From IMG/VR virus record IMGVR_UViG_3300021093_000007: a stretch of DNA of 64,000 bases; one strand, 5' to 3'. Below are positions 4,221 through 42,606 of this stretch, one piece after another (the stretch's first letter is position 1; each line of letters opens with the position of its first letter). The position numbers were made by a program, and so were the translations under genes. The stretch is from a virus. Below the pieces are notes generated by a model. It worked only from the letters and a program-made list of their open reading frames with translations, searched no databases and was not told the DNA's origin.

Positions 4221-4486
4221 AACTTTTTGACTACGAAACTTACGAGGATTATGGTAAGGAATGGTTCTTACAAATCCTTCCGCACGGTAGATATGCCCTA
4301 TTAGATTTTTCACTACAGTGGGATGAATATCATGGTGAGGAATGGTTCCCACGGATTGCTATTCATATTGGTGATACTACTGTGTGTGGATTTTTCATTC
4401 GTTATAGACGATTGTATTTTAGTTGTGATATAATTTGTATCAAACGTGATTTTAGCTGGTATAGAAATAGGAGTAGTTATGTCTGA
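4217..4486 (+). CDS. Hypothetical protein, paralog of 633..932
   Basis: Shared N-terminal pattern with 633 ORF. Confidence 0.75.
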   Translation: MKLFDYETYEDYGKEWFLQILPHGRYALLDFSLQWDEYHGEEWFPRIAIHIGDTTVCGFFIRYRRLYFSCDIICIKRDFSWYRNRSSYV

Positions 4487-4823
4487 ACCATACCCTGATG
4501 AAATGTTTGAGGAAGCAGCACGAAGAGAAAAAGAAAACAAAGTCCTAGACATCGCAAAGAACCTTATGGAAGAACATAAGGAAGCATTCCAACATCTTGC
4601 TGCGATTGAAAGAAAAGAACTTGCCGAAAAAGGATTTGAAGAACTCACCACAAATGAGAAAATTCAACTTGCCCTTGAAGAGATTGATTGGATTGTGATT
4701 GGTGGTCAAGATGGTGAAGAGTTTTATGGTTCTATTCAGTTTCTTCGTAAGGTGTTGAGGAGCCTTGTGATACCTGAACAACCGTCACAAGGACACACCA
4801 GAACCGACCTGGATGCCCTATAA
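4479..4823 (+). CDS. Hypothetical protein with Doc-partner antitoxin-like helix
   Basis: AGGAG RBS before ATG 4479; VLDIAKNLMEEHKEAFQHLA segment. Confidence 0.7.
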   Translation: MSEPYPDEMFEEAARREKENKVLDIAKNLMEEHKEAFQHLAAIERKELAEKGFEELTTNEKIQLALEEIDWIVIGGQDGEEFYGSIQFLRKVLRSLVIPEQPSQGHTRTDLDAL

Positions 4824-4824
4824 T
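4767..4824 (+). promoter_or_regulatory. Early promoter, class A
   Basis: GTGATAC...CCGTCAC box (4782), TATAAT 4819-4824, distance 37. Confidence 0.65.
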
Positions 4825-4847
4825 ACACTTGTACACACAGAACTCTA

Positions 4848-5087
4848 ATGTCTAACTTCTACACTTTACTTCCTGGAACTGATGTGCTCCGCAGTAAGAT
4901 TGATGTCTTTACTTGGACTAATCCCGAAAATGAAAATGAAACTGAACGAGTAGAACTCACAGTAGATAATGCTGGTATTTTCATTACTTCTTGTTCTGGT
5001 GGTGCTCGTGAAGATATGAGTATTTCACAGAAGGATTTGGCGATTGCTCTTGCTCGTGGAATTCTTGAAGCATATGGAGTTGGTTGA
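4848..5087 (+). CDS. Hypothetical early protein
   Basis: First ORF after promoter. Confidence 0.75.
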   Translation: MSNFYTLLPGTDVLRSKIDVFTWTNPENENETERVELTVDNAGIFITSCSGGAREDMSISQKDLAIALARGILEAYGVG

Positions 5088-5411
5088 ATGACTGACATTT
5101 CTAAACTTTCTTATAAAGAACTCCAAAAACTTGCAAAACAAATTGATGAACGCAAAGAGGTATTGCGTAAGTCAAAAGACTGTGTTGAAGGTTATAAAAT
5201 CACCTTCTGTGTAAAGTTCAATCCTGCTGAACACCAATTTGATGAATTGAAAAGTCCAGAAGATTTTGGTGATTATTTGGCAAATGATGTGGCAAATATG
5301 ATTATCAAAGATTTGGGTCTTCTGCAATCTGATGTAAGTGCTTTTATCATTGAAGAAATGACTGATGAAGATAAGGTAGAATGGAAGAACTTCTGGGAGG
5401 ATGATGAATGA
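5088..5411 (+). CDS. Hypothetical protein with N-terminal amphipathic helix
   Basis: 107-aa ORF, GGAG upstream. Confidence 0.75.
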   Translation: MTDISKLSYKELQKLAKQIDERKEVLRKSKDCVEGYKITFCVKFNPAEHQFDELKSPEDFGDYLANDVANMIIKDLGLLQSDVSAFIIEEMTDEDKVEWKNFWEDDE

Positions 5412-5707
5412 CTTACAAACTTGATCCAGAAGCAAAAGCATTCTCATACACTCGTGAAGAGTTGTTTGAGTGCATCAAAAAGATTGTAGCACACCCACAC
5501 ACTGCGATCACGAAGCACGACCAATCCCGTGCTCTTGCGATTATGATGGTGTTTGATGATTACTTCACCAATTACACTGAAAGTGATAACAATGGTGGGC
5601 ATTATGTTTATGAACAAGATGCAATTGACTTTATTTCTTTTGTAAGATTTAAACTTGGTATTGCTGGATTACCTGATGGTATTGATGTTGATGAGGTGTT
5701 GAAGTGA
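5408..5707 (+). CDS. Hypothetical protein
   Basis: ATGA-coupled, GGAGG upstream. Confidence 0.75.
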   Translation: MTYKLDPEAKAFSYTREELFECIKKIVAHPHTAITKHDQSRALAIMMVFDDYFTNYTESDNNGGHYVYEQDAIDFISFVRFKLGIAGLPDGIDVDEVLK

Positions 5708-5892
5708 GCAGATTTACTGAAAATCCTGATGAGATTGTGCTTCAAGACATTCAGATGTTTCATCTGGAAAGTATGAATGAGAGGACACTCTGGATTGGTG
5801 TCTATACAGAGAGTGATAAAATCTATCACTTGAATATTTCTGCTGTTGGTGATAAACTGAGCTATTGGTGGAGTGATGAAACCTGTGACTGA
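5704..5892 (+). CDS. Hypothetical protein
   Basis: GTGA-coupled, GAGG upstream. Confidence 0.7.
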   Translation: MSRFTENPDEIVLQDIQMFHLESMNERTLWIGVYTESDKIYHLNISAVGDKLSYWWSDETCD

Positions 5893-6091
5893 CGAACAAA
5901 AACTTACATTTCTACTTAAAGAACTTAAAATTTTAGCAAGAGAAACTCATTGTTATGATGGTAAAGGTGGTGGAGATTATTATGAATATCCACCACATGA
6001 TTATGATGTATTTGCTGATGGTGAAAAGTATGGACTGGTTTCCTTCGCTCGCAGTATTTTAGAGAGTATGGGTGAGAGTTGTGAGATTTGA
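5873..6091 (+). CDS. Hypothetical protein
   Basis: 72-aa ORF in operon; exact start uncertain. Confidence 0.65.
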   Translation: MMKPVTDEQKLTFLLKELKILARETHCYDGKGGGDYYEYPPHDYDVFADGEKYGLVSFARSILESMGESCEI

Positions 6092-6437
6092 AGAACCTAC
6101 AAAATGGGAACTCTTCCTTGATGGATTCCATAACTTCTGGAACTGTCTGGATTGTTATAATGATGGTGATACTTGGGGTTATGATGAGTTCTGGGAAGGA
6201 CTATCTCTGGGATGGTATATGGAATACATCTATCCTTATGATGACCCATATAATATCACCATTTCCCCTGAGCGTAAGTTGAGAATTGACCAAAGACCAC
6301 CAGTAATTTATGTTTCAGAAGAGGCATATGATAGACTGGTAGAGGCAATCAATTCACCACCAGACCCAGAATCTGTAGAGAAACTTCGTAAACTGTTAGA
6401 ACGTAAAGCACCATGGGATGACGATTATGGCAATTGA
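6072..6437 (+). CDS. Trp-rich protein with C-terminal DUF1778/TacA antitoxin-like tail
   Basis: VIYVSEEAYDRLVEAINSPPDP..EKLRKLLERKAPWD matches the remembered C-terminal half of TacA/AtaR antitoxins; no RHH domain. Confidence 0.7.
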   Translation: MRVVRFEEPTKWELFLDGFHNFWNCLDCYNDGDTWGYDEFWEGLSLGWYMEYIYPYDDPYNITISPERKLRIDQRPPVIYVSEEAYDRLVEAINSPPDPESVEKLRKLLERKAPWDDDYGN

Positions 6438-6675
6438 TGTAAAAGAAGAACAAGACGGATCATTTACTATTTCATGGGATGAGAATGATCCAGAGGAGTC
6501 TATGTTTAACACATGGACAGAACAAGACTTTGTAGATGCTATTCTTGAGCATTGCAATAGGGTCTTGGGACAGTATGAAGAGTGTCCACCAGAGGCAGAG
6601 GATTCCCTGGATTTGGCAGTAGACTTACAGAGTCCTTCAGAAGACAACCATGAAACCCTACCCCCTGGGTCTTGA
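6427..6675 (+). CDS. Acidic hypothetical protein
   Basis: DGSFTISWDENDP motif typical of cyanophage hypotheticals. Confidence 0.7.
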   Translation: MAIDVKEEQDGSFTISWDENDPEESMFNTWTEQDFVDAILEHCNRVLGQYEECPPEAEDSLDLAVDLQSPSEDNHETLPPGS

Positions 6676-6826
6676 CAATCCTTACGTTATCCGTGGTATC
6701 CATGGCAGCACACGTTGGGGATTGTATCATCGTGACACCTATCAGAAGATAGCAGAGTTTGCTTCTCAGACTCAAGCTTATGATGCTCGTCGTGCTATCC
6801 TAAAGGTTCAGGGGTATGATGCATGA
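6650..6826 (+). CDS. Hypothetical protein (58 aa, not in ORF track)
   Basis: MKPYPLGLDNPYVIRGIHGSTRWGLY... fills the gap in the operon. Confidence 0.6.
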   Translation: MKPYPLGLDNPYVIRGIHGSTRWGLYHRDTYQKIAEFASQTQAYDARRAILKVQGYDA

Positions 6827-6887: not shown

Positions 6888-7079
6888 ATGAAAACTTCTA
6901 CTGCTCTTGGTGTTGCTTTTGGTGCTCTTGTTTTTGCCACTGCTATTCTATTATTTGAAGCGTGGTTAGTTGGGATGATTTTGTCTTGGTTTGGAGTAAC
7001 CTTGTCATTCTGGCAGAACTTTGTTATGATTGTACTTGCTAATATGATTTTCAAACCCTCTGGAGTTTCTTCTAAATGA
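6888..7079 (+). CDS. Small membrane protein
   Basis: Two hydrophobic stretches. Confidence 0.7.
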   Translation: MKTSTALGVAFGALVFATAILLFEAWLVGMILSWFGVTLSFWQNFVMIVLANMIFKPSGVSSK

Positions 7080-7194
7080 TTACCACAATTATGGCAGGAT
7101 TTGCCTTTGGTTATTGTGTGATGGATATTATCCAAAACTATCGTGCTCGACGCACTATGGATGAACTGCTCAAATCTACTATCGAAGGTGACAA

Positions 7195-7602
7195 ATGAAC
7201 AAACAAAACGGATTTATTGACCCTGCAGTTGCTGCTATTGCTGTAGGTGTGGTAGTGATTGGTGGTCTCATCTTTATTGGTGGTCCCCAATACAATGTGT
7301 GGCAACAATCTCTTGCTGGTAAAGCAGAACTGCAAAAAGCAGAATATACCCGCCAGGTAGCAGTTCTGGAAGCACAAGCAAAAAAAGATAGTGCTCAACA
7401 ACTTGCTGATGCTGAAATCATTCGTGCCACTGGTGTTGCTAAGGCAAACCAAATCATCGGTGATTCGCTGAAAGATAACCGTGAGTATCTTCAGTATCTG
7501 TATATCACTGGTATCGAAGATGGTTCTAAGAATGGTAATGTAACCATCTATGTGCCCACTGAAGGTGGTATGCCTGTTCCTACTCTTCAGATGAACAAGT
7601 GA
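7195..7602 (+). CDS. Membrane-anchored SPFH/prohibitin-like (membrane protease subunit-type) protein
   Basis: N-terminal TM, Ala/Glu coiled coil (EAQAKKDSA..AEIIRATGVAKAN), YLQYL..IYVPTE tail. Confidence 0.7.
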   Translation: MNKQNGFIDPAVAAIAVGVVVIGGLIFIGGPQYNVWQQSLAGKAELQKAEYTRQVAVLEAQAKKDSAQQLADAEIIRATGVAKANQIIGDSLKDNREYLQYLYITGIEDGSKNGNVTIYVPTEGGMPVPTLQMNK

Positions 7603-7656
7603 CACTTTGAAGACTGTCCACACCACCCCTTCTGGGGTGGTTTTTTGCTTTATACT
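7599..7656 (+). promoter_or_regulatory. Class A early promoter with embedded intrinsic terminator
   Basis: GTGACAC-N8-CTGTCCAC; hairpin ACCACCCC-TTCT-GGGGTGGT plus T-run 7622-7646; TATACT 7651-7656. Confidence 0.8.
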
Positions 7657-7682: not shown

Positions 7683-8144
7683 ATGACTGCTTCCACCTTT
7701 GACCAGTATGTTGCTGAGCAGGATGCCCGCAACACAATCCAACTCAATGTGACCAAGTGGACTTGGTTGTTGTGTGATGCTCTGCGTCAAAACTTTATTG
7801 ATTACAGTATTCGTGGTCATTACAAGTCTCTTCAACGTGGGGAAGATACTAACTATCACGAAGCATGTATTGTTGACTTGAAGAATGGTCATTGTGGTTA
7901 TGACTTTACTTTTGAGAGTGGTAAAAAATATCACAAAGTTATCATGAGCATTGACAATGGTGGCAAACTGCCCAACTCTCGTAGTGTGCATTGCTTCATT
8001 GACAAGAAGACTGGTGAAGTCTACAAGTCTGCATCTTGGAAGTCTCCTGCCAAAGGTGTTCGCTACGATCTGCGTATTCTCAATCAGCGTGAATGGTTAC
8101 TTGCCAACGCTGATTGGGCAGGTCATTATCTCTACGCTCGATGA
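7683..8144 (+). CDS. Conserved phage hypothetical protein
   Basis: SVHCFIDKKTGEVYKSASWKSPAKGVRY motif. Confidence 0.85.
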   Translation: MTASTFDQYVAEQDARNTIQLNVTKWTWLLCDALRQNFIDYSIRGHYKSLQRGEDTNYHEACIVDLKNGHCGYDFTFESGKKYHKVIMSIDNGGKLPNSRSVHCFIDKKTGEVYKSASWKSPAKGVRYDLRILNQREWLLANADWAGHYLYAR

Positions 8145-29733: not shown

Positions 29734-32700
29734 ATGAAGAACAGAGTTAATATCAAAAATTTAGTTTCTGATCAACTTCCTACTTTTGTCAGGGATGGAT
29801 ATCCAGAATTTGTAGAATTTTTAAAGGAATATTATGATTCTTTAGAGTTTCCTGGTGGTCCAGTAGACATCCTGAATAATATTGATCAATACACACAATT
29901 AAACAATATTACAGAATTAACATATTATACAAATCTAACAGAAGATACTGGTTACACTACTAACACAATTAAAGTTGAAAGTACGGATGGATTTCCACCC
30001 AATAATGGTCTTTTACAAATTAATGATGAGATTATTCTTTATGAATCTAAAACAATTGATACTTTTATCAATTGTAAGAGAGGATTTAGTGGAATTACTA
30101 CTTACAGAACTGCAAACTCAGATGCTTTAGAATTTGAAAAGACTCTTCGTTCACCACATACGTCTAATCAAATTGTATATAATTTACATGCGTTATTTTT
30201 AGTTGAACTTTATAAGAAATTTAAATACCAATATACTCCAGGTTTTGAAGATGTTCAGTTTTATGAAGATTTAAATGAAAAGGTATTAGTATCAAAATTA
30301 AAAGATTTTTATTCATCAAAAGGTGCCAATAGTTCTTTTGATATATTATTTAAATCTATTTGGGGTTCACCCGTACAAATTATTAAGCCTAGAGATTTTT
30401 TAATTCAACCATCTGATGCAGATTTTAGAATTACTAGGGATCTTGTAATTAAAAGACTATCTGGAAATCCAGAAGATTTGATCAATAGAACGTTATATCA
30501 GGATGAAACGAATACAATTCTAAAAGCGGTTGGATCTATTACCAACGTTGAAAAAATATTTAAAGATGGTGAAGAATATTTTAGATTAAGTTTGGATTAT
30601 AATCCAGAATTAGAAACTTTTAATTTTACTGTACACCCAAAAACAAAAATTACTAATCCTGTTGGATTAGGACAGACTTATCTTGATGTTGATTCAACAT
30701 TAAGTTTTACAGACTCTGGAACTCTTGTTGTATTTGACAATACCGTAGAATATAAATTTACTTACAACGGTAAAAGTTCAACACAATTTTTTGGTGTATC
30801 TTCTCCAGTTGCAATAGACTTAAACACAGATATAACAACTCCAGATTATGCTTATGCACTTACAAGTTCTAATGAGCAAATTAAAGTTAAAATTACTGGG
30901 GTACTTGGAGACCTAGAGTTTGATAGAGATTCATCTTATTACTATGAAATTGACGACCAGGTTGAGATTGTTTCTTTAGGAGCAGATAGTGAAGATCAAG
31001 TAAGAACGACGTGGATTAATAATGTAACACCAGAATATGAAATTGAACAAATTACTCAAGTTGCTTTAAAATTAAATGGAGCTGCTCAATATAGAATAAG
31101 AACTTTTGACCCTAATATATTTACTTTAGGTGATATTGGTACAATAAAAGGAAGTGATGGTAATCAATACAATATATTTGTTATAGCAGTGTCAAACAAA
31201 TATGAATTTGACGTTAATTTAACAACTAGAATTGATACAACTAATGTAAAATATTCAATTAGAAAGGGAATTTCAAAAACAAATAGTAATAATCAACCAG
31301 AAATTAATATTATTTCGGCAGACATACAAAATGTTTATACCGATGACGAAGATACTTATGTTGTATGCTCTTCGTTACCAAATTATTATAATACTCCTAT
31401 TATTGTTGAGGACTTATCTGTAATATTTACAGGGCAATATGATGGATTTGATCTTAACATTGGTTCAAACTCATTTATTAGTGGAGAAGCTGTATATTAT
31501 TCACGAAATAATAATATTGGTTTGAATATTGCAGAGGGGCCATATTTTGTATATAAAGTCAATTCTAGTACAATACGATTAGCTACAAGTAGATCAAATA
31601 TTAGAAGTGGTCAGTTTGTCTATGTTTTTGGTACAGTATTTAATAATAAACTTTCATTGTTAAAATATAATGATAGAAGATTACAAGCACAGGATTTAAT
31701 TAGAAAATTTTCTCCAAGTGTTGATGATGATATTGTTGAAAATAGAATTACAAAACCAGGAACACTAGGATTATTTTTAAATGGTGTAGAATTATTAAAT
31801 TATAAATCATCAGACACAATTTACTCTGGTCCTATTGAAGAAATTGTGGTTTCTTCAAATGGAGATTCAAATTATGATGTAATTGACCCCCCAATAATGC
31901 TCATATCCGATAATGTTGGTGCTGGTAACACTATTTTTGGTTCTGGTGCTGAGGGTATATGTAATGTGACTGGATCTTTGTCTAGAATTAATATTTTGGA
32001 TAAAGGTTTTGATTATACTGATGAACCAAAAATTACAATTTCAGGTGGAAACGGAACTGGAGCGGAAGCAAAGGCGAATTTATCTAGAATTATCCATTCA
32101 GTATCTTTTAATGCTGGTAGTTTATATGATCAGGTTAATTTAACGAATAATTCTATTGGATTTACAACATACCATAAATTTAGAAATTTTGAAAAAATAA
32201 TTTATAATTCACAAAATCAAACTAAAATTGGCAATCTGGTTGACGATGCGATTTATTTTGTCAACATAATTGATCCTGTTCGTATAAAATTACATAACAC
32301 TTTAGATGATGCCATTTCTGGTATTAATACTGTTACTTTTGGATCTTACGGAGAAGGTCTCCAAAAATTAACATCTACAGATAGAAAAAAAGTTATATCC
32401 TCAATTGAAGTAATTAATCCTGGAAAAGGATATAGCAATAAAACTTTATTCTTTAATGGTGACTCAATCAATTTATTTGATAATACAATTACAATTCTAA
32501 ATCATGGTTATTCAGAAAAAGAAACTATATTATTTGATACTGATGGAATTTTACCAGTAGGTCTTTCGACTAATTCTGAGTATTTTATTAATGTTATTAA
32601 TAAAAATACATTTAGAGTTGCTTCTGTTAACCCTGTAGGAGTTGGAAGCACAATATCAAATGATTATAATTATGTAAACAAAAGATTTATTGATTTTTCA

Positions 32701-35700
32701 GATGTTGGTTCAGGGCAGCATTCTATAAAGTATCAACCAATTAATATAAAAATTGAATCTCCAATTGGAGTTACTACTTTTGCTGGTCAAGATTTTAATG
32801 CCAGAATCAGACCAATTTTTACTGGAGCGATACAATCAATCTCCATGAAAAATATTGGTGACAATTATGGCGACCCAAATGTTGTAAACTATAATCGTCA
32901 ACCAAATATAACACTATTAAATGGTGAAAATGGACAAATTAGTGTAATTGTATCATCACAAGGCAAAATAATTGGTGCGATTGTAAATAACCCAGGTTCA
33001 AATTATAATTCACCACCTTTGCTAGAAGTTATTGGTTCTGGATTTGGTGCTATTTTGGTTCCAGTAATATTAAATGGAGCAATTGTTGACGTAAAAATTA
33101 TTGAAAGTGGATTTGGATACAATCAAGTAAATACTATTATTAAAGTAATACCTACAGGAAATGGTGCTAGATTTGAAGCTAAAGTTAAATCTTGGACTAT
33201 TAACATAGTTGAAAGATTATTCCAGTCAGATCAGGTAAATAATGATGATGGAATAGTAAGCAATCCTCTTGCATCAGAGAAAGGATTGCAATTTGTTCAT
33301 GCTTACGCTGCTAGAGAACTTAGAAGAAAACTTCTATCAACATCATTAGATATTTTGGGTAATAAAGTCTATAGAGCAGACATAGACAATGAAAGTAATG
33401 TCACAAAATATCATTCTCCTATTATCGGATGGGCTTACGATGGTAACCCAATTTATGGACCTTATGGTTATGCCGACAAGGAAGGTGGTGCAGTTGTAAG
33501 ACTTCGTAGTGGATATGAACTAAAGTTAAAAGGATATAGACCATCTACAGCGTCTTTCCCTCCTGGATATTTTGTTCAAGATTATGAATTTACAAATAAT
33601 GGTGATTTAGACATACACAATGGAAGATATTGCAAAACTCCAGAATTTCCAAATGGAACTTATGCATATTTTGCAACTGTAAATACATTAAAAGATGCGT
33701 CTGGACCATTTAATGGATATTTAAAACCAATATTTCCATACATTGTTGGAGATACGTTTAAATCTAAACCGATTGAATATAATTTTGATCAATATTCAAA
33801 CTTATCCTTTGTCAATTTAAATAAAACTGGTTGGATTAGATTTACAAGTCCATTAGGATTACTTTTAAATAAAACAAAATATCAAGGGTTCATTCAACCA
33901 GATACTTTTAGTAAAGGATTTACTGAAGTTAATAGTATTAGTCCTGGTGAACTAACAGAACTCCAAATAATTTCTCCTGGAGATAATTATTCAATACAGG
34001 ATAATATATTCTTTAACAGTCAAGGAACAGGAGGTTCTGGAGCATACGCTAGAATTTCAGAAATTAAAGGTAGAGATGTAGATTCTATCTCATATAGCTT
34101 TAGTAAATTAGTTGATGTGGAGTTTACTCCTTTTGGGTCTAGTGGAAGGTATGTAGGATTTGCTAGCACTTCCCACTCTTTAATAAATGGTGACATTGTA
34201 TCTGTTCAAAATTTAAATATTTTATCTACAGAATTTGCATCAATTTATACAGTTGGCATATCTACAAATACTCTTACATTATCATCAAGCATAGGTAATG
34301 ATGGACAAACTGGAATAGTCACATATTTAAATGTTTCTGGTAATCTAAATTTTCCTATTTTATCTGTAAATGATGTTTATAAAATTGAATCGGAAAAATT
34401 CAAGATTATAAACGTATATCCACAAGATTCTAGAATTAAAGTTTATAGATCATTTAGTGGATCCGTATCAGCTGCACATACTTCAGGTGATGATATAGTA
34501 GAACTGAGTAGAAAATTTACTTTTAATAGTGGTTTTAGTACATCAACAGAATATCGTTTAAACAGTGAATATTACTTTGATCCTAGGGAATCTGCAATAA
34601 TTCCATCTGAAAATCTAATACTATATTCAACTCCAGTTCCACCATCTCTTGTCCCATCTGCTTGGGATTATTATACTTCAGGAATAGGAACTGGAACTGT
34701 AGAATATTTTAGTGCTGTTTCTCCAGATGGTTCAACTAATGCTGCAAAAGTTTCTTTTGCTTCAACCACTGGAGCATCTGATGCATTTGGATTAAAATTT
34801 GAACCTGTTTCATTATCATCAGATTTTAATACATTTTCAGTATTTTTAAGAGGACACACTGGAAATGAGCAGATTTATTTTATTTTAGATGATGGATCTT
34901 TATATTATTCACAACTAGTAACACTAAGTTCAGATTGGAAAAGATATAGTCTTACCGCTCAAACTGGTGCTGGAACTCATAGAATAAGAATTGGAACATT
35001 TGGTACACAAGGTCTTACTTTAAATTCATCACCAACAGTGTATGTATGGGGTGCTCAAGTTGAACTTGGAAAACTAACTAGTAGTTATTATGAAACTTCG
35101 GGAAGTGCATTAACAAGAGCATCTAAAAAGTCTGGATTATTGTTCTTTAGTAATCCTGGAGTAACTCAGAAAAAAGGAATACAAACAATTGTAAATACAT
35201 TTTATTTACCAAATCATGGTTTCAAAACTGGTGATAAAGTAAAATATAACGTTGGGCATGGATATACTGGTGTTCGCGTTTCTTATGCGGCAACAACAAC
35301 ACCACTTTTAGATTCTCAGGACTTATATGTTGCAACATATGATAATGATTTTATTGGTGTTTCCACTCAAAGAATAGGAATTGGTAGTACTGGTGGATTT
35401 GTTGGAATTGGTTCTGATGTTCTAGAATTGTTTAGGATTGCAGACTATGGAACTGGAGAGGTTCATAGTATTAAGACTAATTTACCATTAACTATTCGTG
35501 GAGACGTTTATAAGAAAACCGCCACTGTTATAACAAATAGAGAGCATGGTCTTACAAGTGGAGACGAAGTTAACATTAAGGTTACTTCTGGTATTACTAC
35601 AACTTTTGTTATTTCTTATGATGACATTAACAGAAGGATGTTAGTAAATCCAAGAGTATTTGTTGATGTTGCTATTAATTTATCTAGAAATACTATTACA

Positions 35701-38700
35701 TTACCAAATCATGGATTTGTAACTGGACAAAAAGTAATTTATAATTCGGCAACACCGTCTTCTGGGTTAATAAATTCAAAAATATATTATGTTATTGTCT
35801 CTGATGACAACACAGTTCTTTTATCTCACTATTATTACGACAAAATTTCATCAAATACTGCAATTGAAATAGTAAATATTGGAACCCAAGCAGCAGGTTC
35901 TATCACACCAGTTAATCCAGAAATATTTGCAACAAAAAATTCAACAATTATTTTTGATTTATCAAGCACTACACTAGCTTCTGGTTCTTTACCCTCATTT
36001 GACTTTAACATTTATTTTGATCCTCTCTTCCAAAAAGAATTTTATACGTCTCCACAAAATACAGGTGCATTTAATTTTAGAAAGAGTGGAACAATCGGAG
36101 AATCAAATGGAAAGGCTGAGTTAATTATAGATGATTTCATTCCAACATCACTATATTATAACTTGACTCCAATCAAATATGCTGGTGCAACAGCAGCAAA
36201 ATTAGAAATTATAAGTGATTCTCTTAACGTTAAAAATCCTAACAAATTATCTGTTGTCGATAGTAAGTTTAATAGAATTACTACAGTTTCTGGTATTACT
36301 TCTAATACTTTTAAATATTCATTAGAACTTACACCAGAAAGATTTAGTTATAATAATTTACAAGCACAAACAACATATTCTACAGCATCTCGCACTGCAA
36401 TAGGACCTGTTGCTAAAATTAGTATTGATTCTGGAGGTAGAAATTATGTAAGACTACCAAATGTGACCCAAATTGTAAGTGGACTTGGAACTGCAGCTCT
36501 ATTTTTACCAAGAAGTAAAACTATTGGTAAAGTTAATGGTGTTGTTTTAACTGACATTGGATTTGATTACCCATCAGATAAAACATTAAGACCTCTTGCA
36601 AATTTTCCATACACATATAAAATTGAACCACTATCAAAATTTAAAAGAATTCAAATAGTTACTCCTGGGGTAAACTATTTTGTTGCTCCACAACTTGCAG
36701 TTGTTGATGGATTTACAGGAAGAGTAAATACTGAAGTTTCTCTTGAATATGAAATTGGAGATACTGAGGTAACAATTATAAGAAATACAACAGGTTTGTA
36801 TAACGTAACACCAAAAATATTACCAATTAATAATCCAAATGGAATAAGAATTGAAAATATTGTATTTGATCCAGGAACTTTAAATGTCACAGTTTCTTTT
36901 GCTGTAACATTTGCATCATCACAAGATTATCCATTCATTGTTGGTGAAAAAATAATTGTAGAAAATACAAATATTGATGCCAATTTTGGTGGTAGAGGAT
37001 ATAATTCTGCTGCTTATGATTACAGGTTGTTTAGAATTACAGCAGCAAATCCAGACATTGGTGGCGATAATCCAACTTTAACGTTTAATTTAACTGGATT
37101 TTTAAACCCTGGAGAAGAACCAGGTATTTTTGATAGTTTTGAATCTTTTGGTACAGCGACTCCAGAGGCATATTTTCCAGAATTTGATGTTGATTTGGAA
37201 AAAGATAGTTTTAGAAATGGGGAAATAATCGTAGCCCAAGATGGAAATGTTGGTGTCGTTCAATCTTATGACCGAAGAAATGAATTTTTAAAAATAAGAT
37301 CTAAAAAAATATTTAAGGTAGATGACCTTGTGATTGGAGCATCTTCTCAAAACAAAGGTCTTATATCGTCTGTTGATGGTATTACTGCAAAATACTTAAT
37401 TGAATCCAATAGTATTACTAAAAAAGGTTGGTTAAGAGAGACAGGAAAACTCAATCAATCTTTCCAAAGAATACATGATAATGATTATTATCAATATTTT
37501 TCATATTCTGTTAGGTCTCCAATTGAATATCAAGTTTGGAATCCGTTAGTAAGTAATTTAATACATACTGCAGGATTTAAGAAATTTAGTGAATTAACAA
37601 TTGATTCATATGATCCAAATGTTGCTGGAATGTCCACAGCACAAAATTTAAATGCACTAATAGCTATTTCCGATCTAACAGAAGTTGTTGACTTAAATTC
37701 TGTAAAAGATTTTGATATTGCTAGAGAAAAAAGTATTCAAGTAGAAAATACTTTAATATCAAATGAAATTTTATTTAATTTACCATTTTTAGCACAATAT
37801 CAAGAATTTATAGGAAATAGAGTTTTAACAATTGATGATTTTAGCGATGAATTTAATGGAGTTAACAGGGGATTTGGATTAAAATCTGGAGGTTTTCCAA
37901 TATTTGAGGTTTCTTTTAATGGAAGTGATTCTACTAAACTTGAATTTGGTGATGGGACAATAAATCTTGGAAATCACTTTTTTGTTAGTGGAGAAGAAGT
38001 TGAATACATTCCACCAAATAATGATTTTGCAAACGCTATTAAAATTGCGCCATCAGATTTTGGTTCTGGAATTGGAGTAACAAATCTTTTACCTTCTAAG
38101 TTTATTATAATTAAGCAAGACAATCAAAAAGTAAGAGTTGCAACTTCAGCAACAAATGCGCTATTGTTTAACCCTATTGGAGTTGCAATTACAGCAGTTG
38201 GAATTGGTAGCACCCATTTATTCAAATCAATATCTCCAAATAATAGACTTTTAATTACAATTAACGGCACTATTCAATCACCATTAGTTGGAACTGCATA
38301 TACAATAGCAACTACTTCTAGTGTTGGGATAGGAACAACTAACATTGACGTTGTTGGAGTTACATCTATTTTTAGTGGTGATTTGATTCAAATTGACGAT
38401 GAAATCATGTTAGTTTCTGCCGTCAATTCAACCACTAATGTATTGAATGTTAAAAGAGCATGGATGGGATCTACAGAAGATACCCATGCAAGTAATGCTG
38501 TAATTACTAAATTTGTCGGAAATTATAATGTTTTAGATAATAGACTACATTTTTCTGAACCAATGTGGGGTAATTTACCAATTGGATTTGGAACTACCGC
38601 AACATCTGCTGGAGATATTGACTATACTGGATTAACAACTAGTTCTAGATTTAGTGGAAGAGTATTTTTAAGATCAGCATTAAATCAATCAATTACAACT

Positions 38701-41700
38701 AGTTTTATAAAAGCCTATGATAATAATTATGTTTTTGATGATATATCAAATCAATTCAATGGTATTACAACAACCTTTACATTAAAATATCAAGGTAACG
38801 ATATTGATAATATTACATCTAGTAATACTCTAATCTTAATAAATGATATCTTCCAAGGACCTCAAAGATTAGGAAATGTCCTTACAAACATTCCTGGGGA
38901 CTATAAACTTATTGCTGGTGGAGGACAATTACAAGTAGGATTTAGTGGTCCAGTCGCGGATCCAACATTAACAAATGATATTAATGTAAACAGCACTCCT
39001 AGAGGTGGAATTATCGTCAGTGTTGGATCCACAGAGGGATTTGGATATCAACCATTAGTTGCTGCTGGTGGAACCGCGTTGGTATCTACAGCAGGAACAA
39101 TATCTCAAATATCTATAGGTAATTCTGGTTCTGGTTACAGATCAGGATTACAAACAGTAAGAGTTGGGATTCAAACCTTTAGTTATGGATCTGCAGATAT
39201 AACTTACATTGGAATTGCTTCAGTCTTAAATGGGCATGTAATTGGTGTTGCAATAACTAATCCAAAAGTATTTTATGCTCCAAGAGAAGTTGCCAACATT
39301 GGTTATAGTTCTATTACTGGTGTTACTACAGTAACAACTTCAACTCCACACGGATTGCGGTTAGGTGAAGAAGTATCAGTAGTTGGAGCAGCATTCACAT
39401 GTGATTACTATCCTCCAATTGGAGTAAGCACGGCAGTATATAATAATACAACTGGTATAATGACAGTTACTACTGTTGGCATAACAACTCTAAATGTTGC
39501 TAACTTTACATACGATAACACAACTGGATTATCTACTATTGTTACTACACAACCCCATAAATTAATAACACAAACGGCAATTGGTAGAAGTTTTAGTCTT
39601 TCTGGATTAGCATTAACATGCGTTGGTTACGGGCAAACTTTTGCAGTTTATAATTTTATTTACGATGAAACAACTGGATTATCCACAGTGTTTACTGTTG
39701 GAAATCATGGGTTAAGTTCAGGTGATAATTTTAAAATGAGAGAACTAGAGTTCTCTTGTACAGGTCCTTCAGGAGTAACTACAACAATATTCCCAGATGG
39801 AACTCAGGGTTATTTCTTTACTGTTAATACTGGTACAGAAGTTGGAGCAACAACATCTTTTACTGTTAATGTTGGTCCATCTACCATACCACATACTTAT
39901 GTTTCTGGTGGTGTAATTCAAGTTGGTATTAATACCGACATATTCCCTGGTGACTCAATAGTATCACCTTTAGGAAATACATTTAAAGTTCTTTCTGCAC
40001 CAGATTCTTATACACTCACATTTAATTCTGGAATATCTACAATTCCACATTCATATGTAAGTGGTGGAACTTTAACTCTTGGACATAAGTTAAAAGTTGG
40101 AACTGACGTAATTCTAACGGGATTGGGATTCACAAGTGCTCTTGGGATAGTCACACACCCAAATACAAATACTACAGATTATTGTGGAACTCAAGTAACT
40201 AGAATTAATAATATAAGTGAATTTGAACTTAATGTTGGAATTGGATCTACCACATTAGATTATGTGTCTGGAGGAACTGTTGAAGAAATTATCATTGCTC
40301 CTAGACAAATTAACAATTCTCCTACGGGACAAGACCCAGCAGCAAATGGAACGGGAATAGTTAAAATAGTTGATGATTATACATTTATCATTAATTCTGG
40401 AACATCACCATATACTCATTTTTATAAAAAATGTGGAAAGGTTACCAAACCTATTGACGTTGTATTTGACAGTCCTTTAAATTATTATAATATTCCACTA
40501 ATTTATAAACAGGGTGTAGTTGGATTTGGAACTGGTGCCACTGTTGATTTGGTTCCAAGTCAAGATAGCACAATTTTAAACTTTGAATTAAATAATTTTG
40601 GTTATGGGTATGGTTCTGGTGAAACATTAACTGTTGCTATTGGAGGAACAACAGGAATTCCAACTACTGGAATTTCAACATTCAATCATTTTGAACTTAC
40701 AATTGATAGAACTTATCAAAGTAAATTCTCTGGATGGAATGTTGGTGAATTTATTGTACTTGATGACATTTCAGACTTTTTTAACGGAAGAAGAAGATTA
40801 TTCCCATTAACTGTAAATGGGGAAAGTATATCATTCTTTGCTAGAGCAAACTCTGGAATTAATTTACAATCAAATTTACTTGTGTTCATAAATGATACTT
40901 TACAAACTCCAGGAGAAGGATACCAATTTAATGGAGGAAGTACATTAAGATTTACGGAAGCACCAAAAGGATTGGTATCTGGTTTTAGTACAACTGGTGA
41001 TACAGCTAAACTTTTAATGTATACTGGAACTCAAAACATTGACGTTAAAACCGTTGATGTTTTACCTAGTGTTAAAGTTGGTGATGATGTTCAACTGTAT
41101 AGTGATATTGATGAAACATTTACAGAAGAAAGAAGACTTGTAATGGATATTATATCTGCAGATAAAATCATTACTAATAACTATGGTGGTCAAGGTGTTA
41201 CTCTTAATGAACTGTTCTCCAGACCAATTAGTTGGTTTAAACAAACTGTAGATAAAATTATAGACAATGAATTTGTTGGTAAAGATAGAGTATATTATGA
41301 ACCAGCAATTAGTCCAAACACAAATATTATTGAATCTATTGGAATTGGATCCACTTATGTTTTTGTCTATAGTATTAGACCATTATTTGATGATTCTTAT
41401 GAAGGTATACCTCTTGAGGAAAGGTCTATTGTTCAAATACTTAGCCAGGATAATTTAGAGTCTGCAACTGCAAGAGCAACTCTAGGATCTGGTGGATCAG
41501 TAACTAGTGTACTAATAACAAACCCTGGGTATGGATATACAATTGCACCTCAAGTAACAATACAAAAACCATATGGATTTGGGACTAATGCTACAGCAAC
41601 TGCTACAATTGGTACTGGAGGATCTATTACTTCAATATCAGTTGGAACTGGTGGAACAAATTATTTTTATGGTCCACTAGATTCAATTACAATAACGCAA

Positions 41701-42606
41701 CAAGGTAGTGGATTCCCACCATTGAGTCCTGGTAATAACACTTTCTACAAGGCTAGGTTAAAATCAGAAACTGGAATTGGTAGAGGAGCAACTGCTGATA
41801 TACAAATCAGCATCTTAAACTTTAACATATCTTCTGTCAACGTTATTGACAACGGTGCAAACTATGCTGTTGGAGATATTGTTTATGTTGATACCTTTGA
41901 CAATGTTGGATTGGCAACGACTTCTAGAAAATGGGCATTAAAATCACCAATGAAGTTTACAGTTGCCTCCATTTTACCGCCTGAAGTTTTAATCGCACCT
42001 CCAGCAAGAAAGGTTGAAGATGTAATTAGAGTATCTTATGAAGGAGATTATGGAATTGTAGTTGGCGTTGCAACAACATCTTGCTCTGGCGTTACTACAT
42101 GCTTAAGTCTAGAATTTGATTTATTCATACCATTAGATTCTAGAATAAGAACAAGTTTGAATATATCTCAAACTGGAATTACAACAGGATACTTATTCAA
42201 TGTTGTTGGATCTAATTTTGGAGTTGCACCTCAAGCATCACTACGAAGTGATGGTTCTATTTTAGGTATATCATCTCAATTTGCAGATATGACATTTGAA
42301 TGCACAGATTGGTATACAAAATCTGCAATTATACCACCTGGAATTAGCGGATTAGCATCAACTGTTGGAATTGCGACTACGGTTACAACTGTAGTTGTAA
42401 AAGTTCTCAATAGTCCTTTAAGTGGTATTGTTGGTTTTGCTACAACAGCATTTTATGGACATTACACTTGGGGTAAGATTAACATGCCTGTTAGAATTGG
42501 ACCTGGAACTTTCTCGGCACAGCATGATACAAGACAATCAGGAATATCAACAAATCCAATAATAAAAAGAAAGAACCCATTAAAATATTTGGGTTACATT
42601 AGCTGA
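29734..42606 (+). CDS. g7: Giant baseplate wedge initiator (gp7-like), 4290 aa
   Basis: Between g6 and g8; QLPTFVRDGYPEFVEFLKEYY, KDFYSSKG, HSPIIGWAYDGNPIYGPYG, DNDYYQYFSYSV..HTAGFKKF. Confidence 0.85.
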   Translation: MKNRVNIKNLVSDQLPTFVRDGYPEFVEFLKEYYDSLEFPGGPVDILNNIDQYTQLNNITELTYYTNLTEDTGYTTNTIKVESTDGFPPNNGLLQINDEIILYESKTIDTFINCKRGFSGITTYRTANSDALEFEKTLRSPHTSNQIVYNLHALFLVELYKKFKYQYTPGFEDVQFYEDLNEKVLVSKLKDFYSSKGANSSFDILFKSIWGSPVQIIKPRDFLIQPSDADFRITRDLVIKRLSGNPEDLINRTLYQDETNTILKAVGSITNVEKIFKDGEEYFRLSLDYNPELETFNFTVHPKTKITNPVGLGQTYLDVDSTLSFTDSGTLVVFDNTVEYKFTYNGKSSTQFFGVSSPVAIDLNTDITTPDYAYALTSSNEQIKVKITGVLGDLEFDRDSSYYYEIDDQVEIVSLGADSEDQVRTTWINNVTPEYEIEQITQVALKLNGAAQYRIRTFDPNIFTLGDIGTIKGSDGNQYNIFVIAVSNKYEFDVNLTTRIDTTNVKYSIRKGISKTNSNNQPEINIISADIQNVYTDDEDTYVVCSSLPNYYNTPIIVEDLSVIFTGQYDGFDLNIGSNSFISGEAVYYSRNNNIGLNIAEGPYFVYKVNSSTIRLATSRSNIRSGQFVYVFGTVFNNKLSLLKYNDRRLQAQDLIRKFSPSVDDDIVENRITKPGTLGLFLNGVELLNYKSSDTIYSGPIEEIVVSSNGDSNYDVIDPPIMLISDNVGAGNTIFGSGAEGICNVTGSLSRINILDKGFDYTDEPKITISGGNGTGAEAKANLSRIIHSVSFNAGSLYDQVNLTNNSIGFTTYHKFRNFEKIIYNSQNQTKIGNLVDDAIYFVNIIDPVRIKLHNTLDDAISGINTVTFGSYGEGLQKLTSTDRKKVISSIEVINPGKGYSNKTLFFNGDSINLFDNTITILNHGYSEKETILFDTDGILPVGLSTNSEYFINVINKNTFRVASVNPVGVGSTISNDYNYVNKRFIDFSDVGSGQHSIKYQPINIKIESPIGVTTFAGQDFNARIRPIFTGAIQSISMKNIGDNYGDPNVVNYNRQPNITLLNGENGQISVIVSSQGKIIGAIVNNPGSNYNSPPLLEVIGSGFGAILVPVILNGAIVDVKIIESGFGYNQVNTIIKVIPTGNGARFEAKVKSWTINIVERLFQSDQVNNDDGIVSNPLASEKGLQFVHAYAARELRRKLLSTSLDILGNKVYRADIDNESNVTKYHSPIIGWAYDGNPIYGPYGYADKEGGAVVRLRSGYELKLKGYRPSTASFPPGYFVQDYEFTNNGDLDIHNGRYCKTPEFPNGTYAYFATVNTLKDASGPFNGYLKPIFPYIVGDTFKSKPIEYNFDQYSNLSFVNLNKTGWIRFTSPLGLLLNKTKYQGFIQPDTFSKGFTEVNSISPGELTELQIISPGDNYSIQDNIFFNSQGTGGSGAYARISEIKGRDVDSISYSFSKLVDVEFTPFGSSGRYVGFASTSHSLINGDIVSVQNLNILSTEFASIYTVGISTNTLTLSSSIGNDGQTGIVTYLNVSGNLNFPILSVNDVYKIESEKFKIINVYPQDSRIKVYRSFSGSVSAAHTSGDDIVELSRKFTFNSGFSTSTEYRLNSEYYFDPRESAIIPSENLILYSTPVPPSLVPSAWDYYTSGIGTGTVEYFSAVSPDGSTNAAKVSFASTTGASDAFGLKFEPVSLSSDFNTFSVFLRGHTGNEQIYFILDDGSLYYSQLVTLSSDWKRYSLTAQTGAGTHRIRIGTFGTQGLTLNSSPTVYVWGAQVELGKLTSSYYETSGSALTRASKKSGLLFFSNPGVTQKKGIQTIVNTFYLPNHGFKTGDKVKYNVGHGYTGVRVSYAATTTPLLDSQDLYVATYDNDFIGVSTQRIGIGSTGGFVGIGSDVLELFRIADYGTGEVHSIKTNLPLTIRGDVYKKTATVITNREHGLTSGDEVNIKVTSGITTTFVISYDDINRRMLVNPRVFVDVAINLSRNTITLPNHGFVTGQKVIYNSATPSSGLINSKIYYVIVSDDNTVLLSHYYYDKISSNTAIEIVNIGTQAAGSITPVNPEIFATKNSTIIFDLSSTTLASGSLPSFDFNIYFDPLFQKEFYTSPQNTGAFNFRKSGTIGESNGKAELIIDDFIPTSLYYNLTPIKYAGATAAKLEIISDSLNVKNPNKLSVVDSKFNRITTVSGITSNTFKYSLELTPERFSYNNLQAQTTYSTASRTAIGPVAKISIDSGGRNYVRLPNVTQIVSGLGTAALFLPRSKTIGKVNGVVLTDIGFDYPSDKTLRPLANFPYTYKIEPLSKFKRIQIVTPGVNYFVAPQLAVVDGFTGRVNTEVSLEYEIGDTEVTIIRNTTGLYNVTPKILPINNPNGIRIENIVFDPGTLNVTVSFAVTFASSQDYPFIVGEKIIVENTNIDANFGGRGYNSAAYDYRLFRITAANPDIGGDNPTLTFNLTGFLNPGEEPGIFDSFESFGTATPEAYFPEFDVDLEKDSFRNGEIIVAQDGNVGVVQSYDRRNEFLKIRSKKIFKVDDLVIGASSQNKGLISSVDGITAKYLIESNSITKKGWLRETGKLNQSFQRIHDNDYYQYFSYSVRSPIEYQVWNPLVSNLIHTAGFKKFSELTIDSYDPNVAGMSTAQNLNALIAISDLTEVVDLNSVKDFDIAREKSIQVENTLISNEILFNLPFLAQYQEFIGNRVLTIDDFSDEFNGVNRGFGLKSGGFPIFEVSFNGSDSTKLEFGDGTINLGNHFFVSGEEVEYIPPNNDFANAIKIAPSDFGSGIGVTNLLPSKFIIIKQDNQKVRVATSATNALLFNPIGVAITAVGIGSTHLFKSISPNNRLLITINGTIQSPLVGTAYTIATTSSVGIGTTNIDVVGVTSIFSGDLIQIDDEIMLVSAVNSTTNVLNVKRAWMGSTEDTHASNAVITKFVGNYNVLDNRLHFSEPMWGNLPIGFGTTATSAGDIDYTGLTTSSRFSGRVFLRSALNQSITTSFIKAYDNNYVFDDISNQFNGITTTFTLKYQGNDIDNITSSNTLILINDIFQGPQRLGNVLTNIPGDYKLIAGGGQLQVGFSGPVADPTLTNDINVNSTPRGGIIVSVGSTEGFGYQPLVAAGGTALVSTAGTISQISIGNSGSGYRSGLQTVRVGIQTFSYGSADITYIGIASVLNGHVIGVAITNPKVFYAPREVANIGYSSITGVTTVTTSTPHGLRLGEEVSVVGAAFTCDYYPPIGVSTAVYNNTTGIMTVTTVGITTLNVANFTYDNTTGLSTIVTTQPHKLITQTAIGRSFSLSGLALTCVGYGQTFAVYNFIYDETTGLSTVFTVGNHGLSSGDNFKMRELEFSCTGPSGVTTTIFPDGTQGYFFTVNTGTEVGATTSFTVNVGPSTIPHTYVSGGVIQVGINTDIFPGDSIVSPLGNTFKVLSAPDSYTLTFNSGISTIPHSYVSGGTLTLGHKLKVGTDVILTGLGFTSALGIVTHPNTNTTDYCGTQVTRINNISEFELNVGIGSTTLDYVSGGTVEEIIIAPRQINNSPTGQDPAANGTGIVKIVDDYTFIINSGTSPYTHFYKKCGKVTKPIDVVFDSPLNYYNIPLIYKQGVVGFGTGATVDLVPSQDSTILNFELNNFGYGYGSGETLTVAIGGTTGIPTTGISTFNHFELTIDRTYQSKFSGWNVGEFIVLDDISDFFNGRRRLFPLTVNGESISFFARANSGINLQSNLLVFINDTLQTPGEGYQFNGGSTLRFTEAPKGLVSGFSTTGDTAKLLMYTGTQNIDVKTVDVLPSVKVGDDVQLYSDIDETFTEERRLVMDIISADKIITNNYGGQGVTLNELFSRPISWFKQTVDKIIDNEFVGKDRVYYEPAISPNTNIIESIGIGSTYVFVYSIRPLFDDSYEGIPLEERSIVQILSQDNLESATARATLGSGGSVTSVLITNPGYGYTIAPQVTIQKPYGFGTNATATATIGTGGSITSISVGTGGTNYFYGPLDSITITQQGSGFPPLSPGNNTFYKARLKSETGIGRGATADIQISILNFNISSVNVIDNGANYAVGDIVYVDTFDNVGLATTSRKWALKSPMKFTVASILPPEVLIAPPARKVEDVIRVSYEGDYGIVVGVATTSCSGVTTCLSLEFDLFIPLDSRIRTSLNISQTGITTGYLFNVVGSNFGVAPQASLRSDGSILGISSQFADMTFECTDWYTKSAIIPPGISGLASTVGIATTVTTVVVKVLNSPLSGIVGFATTAFYGHYTWGKINMPVRIGPGTFSAQHDTRQSGISTNPIIKRKNPLKYLGYIS

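Follow-up and report, generated by a model that had tools for sequence, protein, structure and literature searches.

Does a T4-like cyanophage that encodes the tail of an antitoxin, with neither the rest of the antitoxin nor a toxin, use this tail against the toxins of its host? The question is raised by a small gene in the DNA analysed here (the window, the whole stretch of 64,000 nucleotides). An earlier note, made from the letters alone, had proposed that the gene supplies only the neutralising segment of a TacA/AtaR-type antitoxin early in infection and thereby disarms host GNAT toxin-antitoxin (TA) systems. The window belongs to a T4-like cyanomyovirus (family Kyanoviridae) of 35.7% GC without close sequenced relatives, the nearest being S-SZBM1, S-PM2, Bellamy and S-SM2.

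The gene, called the tail gene in the following, lies inside a run of small ORFs, all on one strand and with no gaps between them (4446-6826). Its parts and surroundings are listed in Table 1. Since the homologues begin MRFE or VRFE, the second GTG, at 6081, is probably where translation truly begins; this gives an acidic protein of about 118 amino acids (exactly 118 from this GTG; MRFEEP...) and an overlap of 11 nt with the upstream ORF. The C-terminus quoted in the earlier note is an exact match to the end of the longest ORF, and residues 74-116 correspond to window positions 6291-6419. A Pfam search of the neighbouring genes returned no family match. The number of promoter-like matches around the tail gene does not exceed that in shuffled sequences, and no late-promoter-like motif was found between 3500 and 8000. 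Taken together, the tight polycistronic packing, the promoter-like site ahead of the run, the lack of a late-promoter-like motif and the hairpin behind the gene block suggest that the tail gene may be expressed early. The tail homologue of S-PM2 is not among the entries in the supplements of the S-PM2 transcriptome paper. Elsewhere in the window, the sole nearby stretch whose nucleotides are strongly conserved in isolated phages (85% to S-SZBM1, 78% to S-PM2) is 7076-7602. It holds a 135-aa product, for which S-SZBM1 has the annotation membrane protease subunit, and two tiny ORFs that look membrane-like, with no Pfam match. The 153-aa product of 7683-8144 clearly belongs to DUF7717 (PF24835, E 5e-47), and two giant ORFs on the + strand (29734-42606, 4290 aa; 44233-51885, 2550 aa) are presumably structural or fibre-like.

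Table 1. Features at and around the tail gene (window positions).
Feature	Position	Strand	Description
Best sigma-70-like promoter match	4405..4434	+	TAGACG-18-TGnTATAAT, upstream of the run 4446-6826; consensus match only
Upstream small ORF	5873..6091	+	72 aa, no family; stop overlaps the tail-gene start
Longest ORF of the tail protein	6072..6437	+	121 aa plus stop, from the first GTG
N-domain	6081..6287	+	residues 4-72; acidic, Trp/Tyr/Phe-rich
TacA/DUF1778-type tail	6300..6425	+	residues 77-118; short extended segment, helix, PPxP turn, helix, KAPWD ending
Downstream small acidic ORF	6418..6675	+	85 aa, no family; overlaps the tail-gene end; not GNAT-like
First strong terminator-like hairpin	7622..7641	+	8 pairs and T-run; downstream of the gene block

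Judged by sequence comparison, the last ~42 residues of the protein are a homologue of the segment behind the RHH with which DUF1778/TacA antitoxins neutralise their toxins. Using the PF08681 profile, residues 78-111 align to profile positions 46-77 of 80 with 16.3 bits (E 0.0099) and the tail alone reaches 18.7 bits; both scores lie below the gathering threshold of 21 bits, so that the single protein does not qualify for the Pfam family. The same profile is matched by 26 of the 31 homologues, always at positions ~43-77 of 80 and with a best E value of 1.2e-4, and in the three complete phage genomes S-SZBM1, S-CREM1 and S-PM2 the sole PF08681 signal covers positions 43-77 (14-17.5 bits). A phmmer search of the PDB with the single protein (E up to 10) gave five matches, all of them DUF1778 antitoxins aligned over the post-RHH tail (7F37_C, the AtaR chains 6GTQ, 6AJM and 6AJN, and 7AK7_C), and the AtaR stretch that the earlier note had cited agrees with the AtaR chains in this alignment. 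The AtaR chain of 6GTQ that aligns with the phage tail, 6GTQ_C, is only 46 residues long, and the same PDB entry holds the AtaT acetyltransferase. Family profiles matched 7F37_C at E 1.3e-4 and 6e-6, with 7AK7_C, 5ZGN_A and 6AJN_C also among the matches listed, and a profile search of 1.84 billion representative proteins brought up a full RHH-plus-tail protein with recorded PF08681 (P0234) at E 2e-4. Alignment of 83 phage tails to 12 canonical picocyanobacterial antitoxins by hhalign resulted in a probability of 96.5% (E 9.7e-10), with phage residues 77-118 placed on host DUF1778 residues 58-97 and no other region aligned. The APW-type ending, which the earlier note had given as KAPW for many homologues, does occur in 7F37_C, 7AK7_C and the host antitoxins. 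The similarity of the tail to DUF1778 antitoxins is, on these alignments, beyond chance. Of the DUF1778 match that the earlier note had called for, the homology of the tail thus stood, as judged from hhalign and from the homologues, whereas the score of the single protein fell short. Searches of PHROGs, NCBIfam and PADLOC with the phage protein gave no match.

The RHH of these antitoxins (profile positions ~1-45) is absent from the tail protein. Its PF08681 matches cover only positions 43-77 of 80, in contrast to the host antitoxins, which match positions 1-76, and the AF2 model is free of strands and places a helical hairpin where the RHH would be. The motif ITISPERKLRI was considered as a possible remnant of the RHH strand; phmmer puts ERKLRIDQ on the end of AtaR helix 2 instead and hhalign yields no RHH alignment, and no such origin is claimed. 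It also proved correct that no GNAT gene lies beside the tail gene, and none was found elsewhere in the window. The GNAT domains PF00583 and PF13508 are absent throughout the complete genomes of S-SZBM1, S-CREM1 and S-PM2, and a profile of picocyanobacterial TacT-like proteins (E up to 10) found no match either in the 64-kb window or in the surroundings (±3 kb) of 80 related IMG/VR loci. Lacking both RHH and toxin gene, and scoring below the Pfam threshold, the protein belongs, by these profiles, neither to the DUF1778 family nor to the GNAT-RHH TA modules. What it shares with TacA, AtaR and KacA (PF08681; 7F37_C, 7AK7_C, AtaR 6AJM/6GTQ, KacA 5ZGN) is the C-terminal ~40 residues, an extended segment, a helix, a Pro-rich turn and a helix, often with an APW(D/E) end. 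Unlike them, it is without RHH, adjacent GNAT toxin and autoregulated operon, resides in a lytic phage, and carries the tail on an unrelated acidic, aromatic, helical domain.

The C-terminal region of AtaR is disordered; it attaches to AtaT, hinders the binding of Met-tRNAfMet and misaligns acetyl-CoA (PMC7758455), and this region is conserved among the antitoxins of GNAT toxins (PMC7758455; family background in PMC9177977). The intrinsically disordered tails of TacA, AtaR and KacA wrap the GNAT toxin and neutralise it by blocking its acetyl-CoA and aminoacyl-tRNA sites, and the phage tail, as a homologue, may do likewise. Given the shared neutralising segment, the protein could therefore work like a TacA tail, in which case its C-terminal ~42 residues would be the functional business end of a two-module protein; since it has neither RHH nor cognate toxin, it would act in trans. 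In such a scheme, infection would shut off host gene expression, upon which labile host antitoxins would decay; the freed TacT-like toxins would then acetylate aminoacyl-tRNAs and stall translation, and the phage tail protein would bind them and keep translation running for the phage. That the tail protein is a decoy which neutralises host TacT-like GNAT toxins in this manner is the reading we favour, and we consider it mildly probable.

The earlier note knew of no such description in cyanophages, and on this point it was in part mistaken. In the passages of Zheng et al. (2023, Viruses 15:380, PMC9964418) on the S-CREM1 gene, ORF106 is presented as TacA, or Tac antitoxin peptide, with the same rationale, namely that phage antitoxins are proposed to bind host toxins. 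In GenBank, gp102 of S-SZBM1 is annotated as 'DUF1778 domain-containing protein', and Klebsiella myophages carry the same kind of annotation. Both cyanophage proteins are homologues from T4-like cyanomyoviruses with 35-56% identity to the window protein (tblastn E 1e-7 and 5e-14; 35% and E 1e-7 for ORF106), which differs from ORF106 in having another, longer N-domain. The passages on ORF106 treat it as an antitoxin gene and, in themselves, mention neither the tail-only state nor modularity nor host-side partners. New here are the tail-only presence, the modular distribution, the fusion and fission of the N-domain, the survey of host toxins and the RHH-less partner genes of the host. Phage factors that defeat TA-driven abortive infection have been reviewed by LeRoux and Laub, as cited in the passages on antitoxins in PMC9964418, and a DarG2-like phage case is given in PMC13309987. 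Like T4 Dmd (against RnlA/LsoA), T4 AdfA and DarG-like proteins (against DarT), TifA (against ToxN) and pseudo-ToxI RNAs, the tail protein is a candidate toxin neutraliser without a toxin of its own in a lytic phage. Unlike those cases, the toxin class would be a tRNA-acetylating GNAT, which is not an established phage defence, and the phage tail is a true, though truncated, homologue of the antitoxin and not an unrelated mimic.

A clustered protein database yielded 261 homologues, the search of representatives gave 108 clusters (E up to 1e-3), and 196 IMG/VR contigs carry the tail. Its pattern is roughly I-x-[LV]-S-x-E-x-[YF]-D-x-L-V-x-x-[IL]-N-x-P-P-x-P ... R-K-A-P-W-D, with D87, L89, P96 and P114 invariant, and no frame disruption was seen among the homologues. 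It forms the constant part of at least three N-terminal architectures, its identity being 45-75% while the N-termini are unalignable. The first is the ~70-aa N-domain of the window protein, the second ('type C') a diverged W-rich N-domain, and the third ('type B') a short form of ~70 aa in which a single aromatic/basic helix precedes the tail; several further, unrelated N-termini occur, including that of a siphovirus-like contig. The genes next to the tail gene differ among the phages that carry it. Among isolates, homologues are found in S-SZBM1 (Shenzhen Bay) and S-CREM1, which infect the estuarine strain CB0101, in S-PM2, which infects the marine strain WH7803, and in S-SRM01, which comes from a freshwater reservoir. 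Tail-only proteins of 37-44 aa (P0177, P0164) were considered as free neutralising peptides and rejected, as reading their frames from stop to stop reveals mis-called type-B genes with a start further upstream. Likewise, the multiple matches of P0157 (1487 aa) and P0233 (1121 aa) to profile positions 61-91 look like repeat-protein noise. A metagenomic protein of 94 aa (P0242) has two tandem tail-like helix-Pro-helix segments without the APW ending.

For the host side, a marine Synechococcus genome served as the entry to its GTDB family, of which we surveyed 401 genomes. Of these picocyanobacterial genomes, 121 have a PF08681 gene that passes the threshold and 120 a TacT-like GNAT (E up to 1e-10); the two nearly always form adjacent antitoxin-toxin pairs, which are found in ~30% of the genomes sampled. 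Carriers are mostly genomes of 2.1-4.1 Mb, while those of 1.3-1.8 Mb are mostly without, and among five named genomes both Cyanobium but none of the three marine Synechococcus have DUF1778 genes. Searched against the same 401 genomes, the phage-tail profile gave ~18 matches on canonical antitoxin tails, which end in ...RQAPWDAQ. Its three best matches (E 1.3e-8 to 7e-5, the lowest value being per genome) are genes of 64-65 aa that consist of a low-complexity N-terminus and the tail, without RHH. Each of them lies directly upstream of, and overlaps, a GNAT of 202-205 aa, which passes the PF00583 threshold and matches, over its full length, every PDB GNAT chain that is paired with a DUF1778 chain (7AK7_A at E 2.5e-15, 7F37_B, 5FVJ, AtaT entries and KacT 5ZGN_C). 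By this search, these RHH-less host genes are the nearest relatives that the phage tail has among cells, and as they stand beside TacT-like GNATs, an RHH-less tail as toxin partner already exists in the host clade. The small partner forms a family of 24 clusters, nearly all unannotated. It resembles the phage protein in having the tail without RHH, and differs from it in being chromosomal and GC-rich, in lying immediately upstream of its own GNAT toxin within an island flanked on both sides by AbiEi-family genes, and in its short low-complexity N-terminus, which is not the phage N-domain. The module is found in the genomes G237, G214 and G212 (loci L109, L110 and L111), and in L109 it spans positions 1435-2225 (tail-only gene 1435-1626, GNAT 1620-2225). 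The 202-aa GNAT of this locus has a basic C-terminal extension of ~35 residues that is absent from canonical TacT. Modules of this type may constitute an unregulated or toxin-autoregulated subclass of TacAT.

As would be expected of a counter-defence gene, the tail gene is an orphan in a lytic phage, and the presumed target toxin family occurs in the host clade. Neutralisation of these toxins is the best-supported reading of the comparisons, and it gains from the host data, with TacT-like GNATs in about 30% of the genomes and tail-only GNAT partners as the nearest cellular relatives. Against it counts that CB0101, on which both S-CREM1 and S-SZBM1 were isolated, is reported to lack TacAT in the passages of Zheng et al. 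(PMC9964418) on this strain, even though both phages carry the tail gene. GNAT/DUF1778 modules are not among the systems of PADLOC, and our literature search found no paper showing that such modules defend against phages.

The remainder of the protein bears directly on how the tail is to be understood. Residues ~4-72 have a pI of 4.1 and contain 25% W/Y/F; a family search with them gave no match and no RHH is present, in line with the unrelated N-terminus described in the earlier note. A first AF2 model, based on close homologues only, was poor (pLDDT 59.7) and was superseded by one from a diverse alignment (pLDDT 79.5), in which the N-domain is predicted as an all-helical hairpin (11-30, 32-35, 37-44, 46-56) followed by a short helix at 66-72 and by tail helices at 83-94 and 99-110. 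Foldseek found no fold match to this model in the PDB (best E 4), a wide VIA-align search gave a best Z of 3.7, which is uninformative for a helical hairpin, and a structural feature search gave no usable match. The N-domain ends in a conserved motif, ...YPYDDxYN.xISPERKLR (in its longer form ...YPYDDxYNPxISPERKLRLG). As a free-standing gene it is present in the podovirus S-RIP1 and in many metagenomic contigs; many phages have it immediately before a type-C tail gene, with which it overlaps. This pattern of fusion and fission argues, at the level of gene organisation, that N-domain and tail work together, and the acidic aromatic domain probably supplies stability, oligomerisation or a second contact. 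In many uncultured cyanophages the stand-alone gene, ending ...SPERKLRLGRWS, overlaps a downstream W-rich tail gene, while in the window protein the two are fused; loci with an N-domain gene upstream of a tail gene include L203:300-919, L147:2609-3189, L199, L166, L185, L195, L153, L164, L144-L146, L169 and L196. P0178, P0193 and P0202 carry, behind a window-type N-domain, an unrelated C-terminal domain of ~60 aa (...NGGYLAYDDNGFTV...), which replaces the TacA tail.

Within the close family, the N-domain is more conserved than the tail (mean column entropy 0.64 versus 1.17). Since the N-domain is conserved, even above the tail, and is linked to it by fusion and fission, the tail may not be the sole or main functional part. 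This gives room to an alternative in which the tail, as a peptide that binds proteins, has been turned to a different partner, be it a GNAT acetyltransferase that is not a toxin, some protein of the phage or the adjacent or fused N-domain product, with the main activity residing in the N-domain and possibly serving an unrelated anti-defence or host-takeover function. The independent occurrence of the N-domain, alone as in S-RIP1 and many metagenomic genes or on other C-termini as in the three proteins above, its frequent position directly upstream of tail genes and its stronger conservation all speak for such re-use, as do the carrier-phage hosts reportedly without TacAT. On the other hand, the features of a toxin-binding segment, including the terminal APW(D/E), are kept across very different N-termini, the short forms are hardly more than one helix and the tail, and the nearest cellular relatives of the tail are partners of TacT-like GNATs. 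We regard re-use for another partner as unlikely.

It is quite improbable that the tail protein is the antitoxin half of a phage-borne TA or addiction-like pair, the toxin of which would be an unrecognised small neighbour or be encoded elsewhere in the phage, for instance to time host shut-off. The tail gene does overlap both of its neighbours, and no neighbour has a known family; yet these neighbours vary between the phages with a tail gene, GNATs are absent from the three complete genomes and the 80 loci, and the downstream product is small, very acidic and not toxin-like. Antitoxin tails are disordered protease substrates, and Gp4.5 of phage T7 inhibits Lon and in this way overcomes a toxin-antitoxin system. 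In line with both, an abundant disordered tail could saturate Lon/Clp and thereby spare host antitoxins, so that all type II toxins would stay neutralised without any binding of tail to toxin. The position-specific conservation of the helix-PPxP-helix-APWD arrangement exceeds what a degron needs, and we hold this mechanism to be very improbable. That the gene is a decaying, functionless remnant of a captured antitoxin gene, as the loss of RHH and toxin and its position in a hyperplastic region of tiny genes might suggest, is hardly credible for an intact gene that is conserved, with invariant tail positions, in hundreds of contigs and several phage genera.

The neutralisation of host TacT-like toxins by the tail can be extended to a wider scheme, which we regard as doubtful in its entirety. 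Under this scheme, GNAT TA modules would be a common means by which picocyanobacteria, and perhaps bacteria at large, defend themselves through abortive infection, and phages would counter them with a portable cassette, the ~40-residue tail, grafted onto different scaffolds. The N-domain would then be a second module, e.g. a mimic of the tRNA acceptor or an oligomerising part that makes binding to dimeric toxins more avid, and would cooperate with the tail, as suggested by gene fusion and fission. The tail-only antitoxins of the host would form a separate subclass of TacA, free of regulation, from which the cassette likely arose in evolution or which likely received it. If the tail protein does neutralise TacT-like toxins, this would be indirect but strong evidence that GNAT/DUF1778 modules, so far tied mainly to persistence and plasmid stability, act in anti-phage defence. 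It would also show these modules to be a determinant of cyanophage host range among the picocyanobacteria of estuaries and fresh water, in which TA systems are common. The natural minimal forms (~70 aa, one helix and the tail) would, together with the RHH-less host partners, define the smallest sufficient neutralising unit, and one peptide grafted on many scaffolds would be a clear example of how phage counter-defence genes are assembled.

Two observations concern the setting in which tail genes occur. In S-SRM01, the homologue (L208:1183-1410) lies between genes annotated as translation initiation factor 2 and peptide deformylase. As some GNAT toxins acetylate initiator Met-tRNA, these translation-related neighbours are suggestive, and they may equally be a coincidence. 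Among the IMG/VR loci L128-L207, many sample numbers are close to those of Lake Mendota MAGs (33000423xx-33000447xx), a proximity which hints at a freshwater bias of the tail family.
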